A DNA stretch of 64,000 nt, from positions 54,244-118,243 of the forward strand of contig DATAVR010000099.1 in assembly GCA_036267635.1 (NCBI GenBank), read 5' to 3'. The position numbers were made by a program, and so were the translations under genes. The notes under the pieces were generated by a model. The model did no database searches. It saw nothing but the letters and a program-made list of their open reading frames with translations, and was not told the origin of the DNA. This DNA comes from Polyangia bacterium (GTDB taxonomy: Bacteria > Myxococcota_A > Polyangia > Fen-1088). Below are positions 50,684 to 52,051 of the stretch, piece by piece (position 1 is the stretch's first letter; each line of letters starts with the position of its first letter).

Positions 50684-50706
50684 ACTGAAATGCTACCATG
50701 CTGCCC

Positions 50707-50760
50707 GACGACGACGATGACGACGATGACGACGACGACGACGACGACGACGACGACGAC
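50707..50760. repeat. Trinucleotide microsatellite (GAC)n of 18 units (two GAT variants) in the divergent intergenic region between the pirin gene and the CXXCH lipoprotein gene.
   Basis: The tract reads gacgacgacgatgacgacgatgac(gac)10 directly. In one frame it encodes poly-Asp (small ORF 50698-50949) and on the opposite strand poly-Val. Confidence 0.9.
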
Positions 50761-50848
50761 CGGACGAATGCTTCTCGGGCTGGAGTTGGAGATCGACGGA
50801 TAGACCGTCTGTTCTGGCGCCGTGGAGTTCCTGATATAAACGACGGAC

Positions 50849-52051
50849 GTGGCACGGCCCTGTTGGCGGATCGGGTTCTGGTTGGCGTCCGCGTTGGCGC
50901 TGTCGCTGAACGGGGCCTGCGGCGGCTCATCCGACACGCCGGCCTCTGATGCCGGTCGCGACGTGAAGCCGGCGCCGAGCGACGGCGGCGACGACGCGGC
51001 CAGTCCCGATGTGAGGCGCGACGCCGCCAGCGACACCACGGAGAAGGACGCCACGGCGACCGACGCCGTCGATGCCCTCGCGGCCGACTGCATGACCGGC
51101 CCGTCCGGCGAGCCGACCGAGCTCCGCTGCTCGGGGCTCTACGCCGACTGGGCGAGCAAGACCGTCGCCTCCGACGTGCGCCAATACGATCCTGGCCTGC
51201 ACCTCTGGAGCGACGGCGCCAGCAAGACGCGCTGGATCTACCTGCCGCCGGGCACGAAGATCGACAGCTCGAACATGGACCAGTGGACGTTCAGCCCTGG
51301 CACCAAGGTCTGGAAAGAGTTCGTGGTCGGCGGCGTGCGGATCGAGACGCGCCTCATCTGGAAACGGCCGTCCGGGGCCTGGTACCTCACGACCTACCGC
51401 TGGTCGGCCGACGGGACGAGCACCACCGAGCTCCTCACCGGCGAGCTCGACGCCGACGGGAACGGCTACGAGGTGCCGACGCAGGGCGCCTGCCACGACT
51501 GCCACGACGGCCGCATCGATTCGATCCTCGGCTTCGAGGCGGTGGCGCTGTCGTCGCCGCAGGCCTCCGGCGTCACGATGGCGACCCTCACCGCCGGCAA
51601 TCTCCTCACCGATCCGCCCGCAAGCCCGATCACCATCCCCGGCAACGCCACCGCCGCCGCCGCGCTCGGCTATCTCCACATGAACTGCGGCACCTCCTGC
51701 CACAACGGCGACACGGGCGAGGCGGGCTACACCGGTCTGCTCATGCGGCTCGACGTGGCGACCCTGGCGAGCGTCCAGACCACCAACACCTGGACCACCG
51801 GCGTAGGCGTGAACGCCCTCTTCCAGGTCGCGGGCCTGGCGGACCCGAGCCCGCTGATCTTCGCCCCCTGCGATCCCGACGACAGCGCCGCCTACTACCG
51901 CATGGACCATCGCGACGACGTCGACGGCACGCCCGAAGGCACCCAGATGCCGCCCGAGGTCACACACAAGGTCGACACCGACGGCGTGGCGATGATCGCC
52001 GCCTGGCTGAACGGCCTCTCCCAGTGCGGCACGACCACCGCCGCGCCGTAG
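50849..52051 (+). CDS. Lipoprotein of unknown function with one canonical CXXCH and one CX3CH motif, a possible c-type haem protein.
   Basis: The lipobox is MARPCWRIGFWLASALALSLNGAC. The cysteine motifs are GACHDCHDG and NCGTSCHNG. Confidence 0.5.
   Translation: MARPCWRIGFWLASALALSLNGACGGSSDTPASDAGRDVKPAPSDGGDDAASPDVRRDAASDTTEKDATATDAVDALAADCMTGPSGEPTELRCSGLYADWASKTVASDVRQYDPGLHLWSDGASKTRWIYLPPGTKIDSSNMDQWTFSPGTKVWKEFVVGGVRIETRLIWKRPSGAWYLTTYRWSADGTSTTELLTGELDADGNGYEVPTQGACHDCHDGRIDSILGFEAVALSSPQASGVTMATLTAGNLLTDPPASPITIPGNATAAAALGYLHMNCGTSCHNGDTGEAGYTGLLMRLDVATLASVQTTNTWTTGVGVNALFQVAGLADPSPLIFAPCDPDDSAAYYRMDHRDDVDGTPEGTQMPPEVTHKVDTDGVAMIAAWLNGLSQCGTTTAAP

Follow-up and report, generated by a model that had tools for sequence, protein, structure and literature searches.

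Long trinucleotide repeats are rare in bacteria, and work on repeat-driven variation has centered almost entirely on host-adapted pathogens. Here, we describe a GAC repeat tract in a 64,000-nucleotide stretch of DNA from a Polyangia bacterium (henceforth termed the window; positions 54,244 to 118,243 of contig DATAVR010000099.1, GenBank assembly GCA_036267635.1). The tract lies between two divergent genes, one encoding a pirin on the minus strand and the other a lipoprotein on the plus strand, and is flanked by core promoters that can be deduced from conservation across relatives (Table 1). The original prediction, made from the sequence alone, had placed it in a 165-bp intergenic region between these genes, which is precisely the interval found (50684-50848). 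It had further described the tract as a perfect 18-unit (GAC)n repeat. Direct reading gives (GAC)3 GAT (GAC)2 GAT (GAC)11, so that the number of units holds but the perfection does not: two of the 18 units are GAT, and the longest uninterrupted run comprises 11. Tandem Repeats Finder calls the same element with a period of 3 at 50706-50760, counting 18.3 copies at 92% matches.

Table 1. Features of the pirin-lipoprotein intergenic region and its flanking genes, in coordinates of the window (ACAD, acyl-CoA dehydrogenase; ORF, open reading frame).
Feature	Position	Strand	Description
Whole trinucleotide array	50707..50760	unstranded	(ACG)n, presumed Thr codons when read in the frame of the ancestral gene
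Interrupted proximal part, (GAC)3 GAT (GAC)2 GAT	50707..50727	unstranded	Same in 7 of 8 complete alleles; overlies the would-be pirin -35
Pure (GAC)11, hypervariable part	50728..50760	unstranded	6, 9, 9, 9, 12, 15 and 23 units in other assemblies of the population
Putative relic(s) of the ACAD start codon, ATG ACG ACG ATG	50717..50728	+	Short low-complexity match
ACAD 3' relic, last 13 codons and stop	50759..50803	+	Window TGRMLLGLELEIDG, then stop; intact relatives TGRLLLGLELDG, then stop
Pirin gene, 320 aa	49721..50683	-	Pfam PF02678 (Pirin) and PF05726 (Pirin_C)
Lipoprotein gene, 400 aa	50849..52051	+	Distant SO2930-family diheme c-type cytochrome
Putative extended -10 of the pirin promoter	50690..50698	-	TGGTAGCAT, 6 nt, ATG
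Putative extended -10 of the lipoprotein promoter	50832..50840	+	TGATATAAA, 8 nt, GTG
ORF MLPD18..., 83 aa	50698..50949	+	Mechanical call, not regarded as a gene

The length of the tract far exceeds chance expectation. When the 64-kb window (68.6% G+C) was simulated 100 times with an order-3 Markov model, perfect trinucleotide runs peaked at 4-6 units, and the second-longest trinucleotide run of the window itself is (CGG)6. Across 375 kb of loci from 35 related genomes, a (CGC)7 is the sole perfect run of at least 18 nt. A comparable repeat is absent from the readable orthologous spacers of relatives as well as from all 35 related-genome loci, and within the 64-kb window no second long simple sequence repeat (SSR) occurs at a promoter. 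In Escherichia coli K-12, trinucleotide repeats reach at most five units (PMC7015867). Both strands of the tract fold as mismatched hairpins in single-strand DNA folding (-11.2 and -8.1 kcal/mol); these are no better than those of dinucleotide shuffles, which themselves remain repeat-like (z -0.5 and -0.2). The only Rfam match on the repeat, to a microRNA, is meaningless (E 0.51).

Exact-protein look-ups of the pirin and of the neighboring DUF2277 gene retrieved further, independent contigs of the same population, yielding eight sequences that span the whole tract (the window and seven metagenome contigs). Identity of these contigs to the window outside indels is 99.8% or higher (99.8-99.9% for the population), with nine single-nucleotide polymorphism (SNP) sites in ~5.5 kb. 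The tract itself differs strongly. The window has 18 units in total with a pure run of 11, while the corresponding values are 30 and 23 in L001 (JGI sample 3300037258), 22 and 15 in L047 (3300036820), 19 and 12 in L055 (3300036823), 16 and 9 in each of L002 (3300036819), L048 (3300036780) and L050 (3300035704), and 10 and 6 in L053 (3300036827). The eight sequences therefore represent six alleles of 10-30 units, and every difference amounts to whole units. All seven complete contigs differ from the window in tract length, with left and right flanks identical throughout. The change is confined to the pure run except in L053, which reads (GAC)3 GAT (GAC)6 and also misses one 9-nt GAT block. One SNP background is common to L001 and L055, which carry 30 and 19 units, and another to L048 and L050, both with 16 units. 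Since L001 and L055 are unlike in length and alike in SNPs, tract length changes no more slowly than haplotypes diverge.

The tract is a hypermutable microsatellite, i.e., a variable-number tandem repeat (VNTR), and shows all hallmarks of this class: excess length, variable unit number between constant flanks, and instability limited to the pure run. The original prediction had named invariant repeat length among isolates as a finding that would speak against it; with 10-30 units in eight sequences, the length is not invariant. Two further contigs, L003 and the Logan contig L004, end inside the tract. L003 was assembled from the same sample as L055, and at the tract the two share exactly 127 nt. 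A branch in a k=127 assembly graph would produce such an overlap, which is a hint, not proof, of heterogeneity within the sample. Using the outer-membrane-protein neighbor as query revealed no further allele, and a scan of JGI metagenome contigs with the 28-nt left flank came back empty, although JGI contigs bearing this flank exist in another index. The data reveal a tract of 10-30 units that varies in natural populations of an uncultured environmental myxobacterium and that is usable as a strain marker for this population.

The orthologous loci of relatives point to the origin of the repeat. The closest relatives, as judged by the identity of the lipoprotein to that of the window, are L040 and L045 (80%), L041-L044 (77-78%) and L005 (74-78%). 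In L040-L044 and L005, the gene order is pirin, acyl-CoA dehydrogenase (ACAD; Pfam Acyl-CoA_dh_N/M/1/2), lipoprotein; the L045 contig starts inside ACAD and contains only the 3' half of that gene and the lipoprotein gene, without reaching pirin. No copy of ACAD is present elsewhere in the window. Instead, an alignment identifies the 3' end of the gene at the same syntenic position in the window, where it immediately precedes the conserved lipoprotein promoter and shares the frame of the tract when this is read as ACG (Thr). The relatives' ACAD ends in ACC GGC CGA CTG CTG CTC GGC CTC GAG CTC GAC GGC TAG, and the window reads ACC GGA CGA ATG CTT CTC GGG CTG GAG TTG GAG ATC GAC GGA TAG (31/39 nucleotides and 11/12 amino acids identical, plus the stop codon). 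The 3' homology to ACAD is solid. The substitutions in the 3' relic fall mostly at third codon positions and toward A or T, as would fit a gene that stayed intact through most of the divergence and began to decay only later.

A counterpart of the 5' end is also discernible. In L041-L044, ACAD starts with cgacc ATG ACG ACG ACC GAG (MTTTE...), and the window reads cgacg ATG ACG ACG ATG ACG ACG ... ACG ACC GGA at the corresponding place. Both GAT interruptions of the tract are ATG codons in the ACG frame, matching the old ATG start. An intact gene at the same syntenic place in relatives, together with homology to both of its ends in the right order and frame, is what a relic of ACAD would be expected to leave. 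It is thus likely that the tract has expanded from what remained of the first codons after an ACAD gene was deleted; we do not put this origin more strongly because the 5' match is short and of low complexity. The original prediction, which had noted a poly-Asp frame of the tract, missed the putative remnant of the deleted gene, in which the historical frame would be ACG (Thr). The N-terminus of intact ACAD is itself Thr/Gly-rich and prone to repeats, and it differs between near-identical contigs, reading MTTTEVGTMGTTGTTGTMGTTGTT (399 aa including the stop position) in one form and MTTTEVGTMGTTGTAGTT (393) in the other. The two forms, L041/L043 versus L042/L044 (~1634-1740), are ~18 nt apart, and the 5' end of ACAD appears from these sequences to have been unstable even before the deletion.

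From these comparisons, the following course of events can be proposed. The ancestor would have had an ACAD gene between pirin and the diheme-cytochrome lipoprotein, with a coding start of ATG ACG ACG ACC (M-T-T-T). An in-frame deletion of ~1.1 kb would then have joined ACAD codon 4 to the twelfth-from-last codon, possibly between two ACCG microhomologies, as ACCG occurs at both places, and ~78 nt of ACAD promoter and Shine-Dalgarno sequence would also have been lost. The orphaned (ACG)n, freed from constraint, may have expanded by strand slippage, with duplication of one ATGACGACG block. The tract now shifts by whole units much faster than its flanks gain SNPs; the interrupted end, with the putative old ATG, is stable and the pure run unstable, as is typical for microsatellites. 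Like other bacterial gene remnants, the locus would retain just the outermost 5' and 3' portions of the former gene at its syntenic place; unlike in usual remnants, low-complexity codons here would have become a long, active microsatellite. If correct, the birth of a microsatellite can be reconstructed from gene deletion through an orphaned run of Thr codons to the present repeat, providing a clean natural example in bacteria.

We then considered how the tract is placed relative to the promoters of the two genes. The pirin-lipoprotein spacer measures ~68 bp in L011, ~120 bp in L009 and 191 bp in L007, and exceeds 1 kb, with extra genes, in L006, L008 and L040-L044. A spacer that ranges from ~68 bp to more than 1 kb between the same promoters indicates that the spacing is evolutionarily unconstrained. 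The spacers are not alignable across relatives apart from two short boxes beside the start codons. On the pirin side, a (G)TG[G/A]TAGCCT box located 6-7 nt from the start codon (ATG; GTG in L006) is kept in L006, L007, L009, L010 and L040-L044. On the lipoprotein side, a TT(G)CTG[A/T]TATA[A/T]A/G box located 8-9 nt from GTG is kept in nine lineages, GTG start included, and TGNTATAA occurs once in the 64-kb window, within this box, versus 0.08 expected occurrences. The boxes lie 6-9 nt from both start codons, and no Shine-Dalgarno sequence is present at either gene (50681-50698 and 50832-50851). This layout suggests that both genes are transcribed as leaderless mRNAs from back-to-back extended -10 promoters. 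Motifs of the type recognized by extracytoplasmic function sigma factors (GGAAC...CGTC), inspected by eye only, showed no convincing spacing around the tract.

With respect to the pirin start, the tract spans -24 to -77 and its variable run -45 to -77; with respect to the lipoprotein start, the tract spans -142 to -89 and the variable run -121 to -89. The tract begins 8 nt upstream of the putative pirin extended -10, and the alleles give intergenic lengths of 141 to 201 bp. The expectation that changes in unit number alter promoter spacing holds for the distance between the two putative promoters, but not for their internal architecture: the variable run lies between the -10 and -35 of neither. 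The tract would thus constitute most of the spacer between two back-to-back promoters whose core sequences are essentially unaltered by unit number.

Weighing these data, we favor with moderate confidence the interpretation that the tract is a microsatellite driven by slippage, the inferred mutational process, that it occupies what is left of a deleted ACAD gene, and that it is neutral or nearly so. The tract would encode nothing, and its effect on expression would most likely be none or small. Several points weigh against this interpretation. The allele lengths rest on short-read metagenome assemblies, not on tract-spanning reads. The 5' match to the ACAD start is a short, low-complexity one of ~17 nt that takes in the ATG, and ~78 nt of ACAD upstream sequence have gone without a clean junction. 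A two-hexamer sigma-70 and terminator scan of 50500-51000 was empty, the promoters being deduced from conservation only. The tract abuts the -35 position of the putative pirin promoter, a geometry like that of functional repeat switches. Finally, pure runs reach 23 units, a considerable length for a bacterium with normal mismatch repair that could hint at selection for mutability. One alternative is that the lengths differ because short-read assemblers erred in low-complexity sequence. In its favor, every sequence stems from a metagenome assembly, the tract is where several contigs end, and Logan contigs cannot extend through perfect repeats that exceed their k-mer. However, flanks and interruption pattern are identical in the window and in contigs from at least eight samples, the differences are exact multiples of 3 and, one 9-nt block aside, lie within the pure run, three samples have the 16-unit allele in common, and arrays of at most 90 bp stay below the 127-nt overlap between contigs of these assemblies. 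An assembly artefact is barely credible against this background. It is also very unlikely that the tract is translated, be it as the poly-Asp ORF at 50698-50949, the extent of which had defined the element in the original prediction, or as a poly-Thr mini-ORF at 50717-50803, MTTMT(n)GRMLLGLELEIDG followed by a stop, either of which would yield a homopolymeric peptide of varying length. Both the Asp and Thr frames are open in all alleles, trivially so since the changes are whole codons; JGI gene callers predicted an Asp-frame ORF of 81, 87 and 95 aa; and GAT, like GAC, encodes Asp, but the interruptions are just as silent in the Ser frame of the minus strand. The start codon at 50698 is not conserved: its ATG results from a lineage-specific CCACG-to-CCATG change inside the pirin -10 box, and all relatives have CCACG. 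Behind the tract, the G+C content at third codon positions of the ORF is 0.38, versus 0.88-0.94 in the neighboring genes, and the ORF runs into the lipoprotein signal peptide in a different reading frame. The ORF has no Pfam match, and its non-repeat part has no homologue in 5.8 billion protein clusters, a search of doubtful sensitivity as it also missed the identical JGI-called ORFs. Moreover, both start codons precede the conserved lipoprotein promoter, and the ACAD promoter and Shine-Dalgarno region are deleted, so that no plus-strand transcript is expected over the tract. We therefore reject the suggestion that the poly-Asp peptide may itself be real.

A regulatory role of the tract is a further alternative. 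Three base pairs correspond to ~103 degrees of helical phase, and negative supercoiling from transcription accumulates between divergent promoters. As a tuning knob or contingency locus, the tract could by slippage alter the distance and helical phase between the divergent promoters, or shift an upstream element relative to the pirin promoter, an idea that we regard as possible, though on balance unlikely. The associated expectation that subpopulations would differ in the levels of the pirin, exported by the twin-arginine translocation (Tat) pathway, and/or of the diheme cytochrome lipoprotein is to be seen with the same reserve. This proposal accommodates the confirmed length polymorphism of 10-30 units, the location of the tract in a supercoiling-prone region between divergent promoters, the ability of both strands to form mismatched hairpins, and the contig breaks that suggest heterogeneity within samples. 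In addition, a tract 8 nt from the putative pirin -10, with its variable part at about -45, recalls the (GAA)n repeat of Mycoplasma gallisepticum vlhA (PMC6258824). Against it, all related species lack the tract, and their spacers tolerate lengths between 68 bp and more than 1 kb. The variable part lies outside the -10/-35 regions and leaves the sequence beside either core promoter unaltered, and there is no conserved binding site beyond the tract. Only one such locus is visible in 64 kb, with no sign of a phasome, and the gene relic already explains the history of the tract. The allele lengths (10, 16, 16, 16, 18, 19, 22 and 30) show no pattern of helical phasing, in a sample of eight that is too small for such a periodicity to be read. 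It seems unlikely that this free-living, non-pathogenic member of the Polyangia uses a repeat from a deleted gene as a heritable, reversible rheostat of two leaderless back-to-back promoters, one for a Tat-exported lipoprotein pirin and one for the diheme cytochrome lipoprotein. Were this nonetheless true, it would represent SSR-based bet-hedging outside the host-pathogen world, by a recent switch with an origin that is readable in the sequence. More generally, an effect of the tract on the flanking promoters would extend contingency-locus biology to free-living soil-type bacteria.

Comparison with known repeat systems helps to place the locus. SSRs act at promoters upstream of Neisseria meningitidis nadA, (TAAA)n, between the divergent Haemophilus influenzae genes hifA and hifB, (TA)n, and at Helicobacter pylori sabA, where a T-tract serves as a rheostat. 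The hif repeat is located between the -10 and -35 of overlapping promoters, and the nadA repeat moves the binding sites of a regulator and of integration host factor (IHF). Phase variation of NadA by tract length has been described (PMC11868660). As in the nadA, hif and sabA systems, repeat number at our locus would alter promoter geometry with the coding sequence untouched, and hifA/hifB are also a divergent pair. Unlike in nadA and hif, the variable run here lies outside both putative core promoters, and its unit is 3 bp long and G+C-rich. The M. gallisepticum vlhA (pMGA) repeat, (GAA)n, lies ~40 nt upstream of the transcription start, and expression was reported only at exactly 12 units (PMC6258824). 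The two loci share a variable trinucleotide repeat just upstream of a core promoter, here a putative one, and a lipoprotein-type gene. However, the vlhA repeat is flanked by conserved sequences and occurs at dozens of paralogous genes and across strains, whereas the tract here is a single locus, missing from related species and without a conserved flanking element. The upkeep across relatives or at several loci that characterizes phase-variable promoter SSRs is not seen, the repeat being present throughout one population only. The typing VNTRs of Mycobacterium leprae, which are trinucleotide and dinucleotide loci (TTC repeats, GTA9, AC8/AC9) (PMC12035532), resemble the tract as short-unit repeats in non-coding or decayed DNA with copy numbers that vary among near-SNP-identical strains. 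There, too, the change occurs by slippage and no function is required as explanation. In contrast to M. leprae, the host here is a free-living, large-genome, 69% G+C member of the Polyangia known only from metagenomes, the tract is positioned between two active-looking promoters, and its birth from the first codons of a deleted gene appears traceable.

The genes on either side of the tract were characterized further. The pirin begins with a twin-arginine-like signal, followed by a lipobox-like LAAC. An upstream extension of its frame is blocked by an in-frame TAG at 50693-50695, and an in-frame TAG at 50801-50803 limits the start of the lipoprotein. An extension of pirin or lipoprotein into the tract is excluded by these stops on the minus and plus strand, respectively. 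The lipoprotein contains one CXXCH (CHDCH) and one CX3CH (CGTSCH) motif, not two CXXCH. It matches TIGR03806 (SO2930-family diheme cytochrome c) over the whole model with an E value of 1.8e-32, below the curated cut-off, and it gave no Pfam match and no hit in a PDB sequence search. The family is widespread in Myxococcota, with the named matches being metagenome-assembled genomes (MAGs) of Polyangia or Polyangiaceae. Because a collection of 5.8 billion protein clusters contains nothing at 80-99% identity to the lipoprotein, and the best GTDB representative is 71% identical, the host is an uncultured species of Polyangia, none of whose close relatives has been sequenced. No match turned up when the lipoprotein, in its 400-aa and 362-aa forms, and the 83-aa ORF were looked up exactly.

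The locus also carries a caution for annotation. Gene callers turned the tract into a protein of 81-95 aa (L001 9699-9986, L002 540-785, L047 369-632) and thereby cut the real lipoprotein gene to 362 aa. The artefact spreads into protein databases, e.g., as the 362-aa P0001.

Other peculiarities were observed in the spacers of relatives. Those of L007 (5850-5930) and L009 (5835-5860) contain a palindrome, GCGGGCGATCGCCCGC, and then AGCGA...CAGGATCA...GAAGAA, a stretch that matches the longer pirin-lipoprotein insert of L006 (880-1100). This stretch may be a relic of a gene present in L006; if it is one, the spacer may repeatedly gain and lose genes and retain their relics. In L005 (MAG CAWKBC010000021), a ~100-nt segment is tandemly doubled between the ACAD stop and the lipoprotein promoter (~5770-5930).

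Two further repeats close to the tract were recorded in the window. A (TGCGA)3.8 pentanucleotide repeat at 49686-49704, which lies between the pirin stop and the start of the next gene downstream, encoding an outer-membrane beta-barrel protein (48788-49540, minus strand), is also polymorphic, with one extra unit in contig L048. An 18-bp tandem repeat at 46935-47008 lies in an ORF of a probable lipoprotein (46031-47812, minus strand), where it encodes a Gly/Ala/Thr/Ser-rich linker of ATGAGS-like units. It has one unit fewer in L002, seen as an 18-nt gap, and is thus the third variable repeat within 4 kb in the same population.

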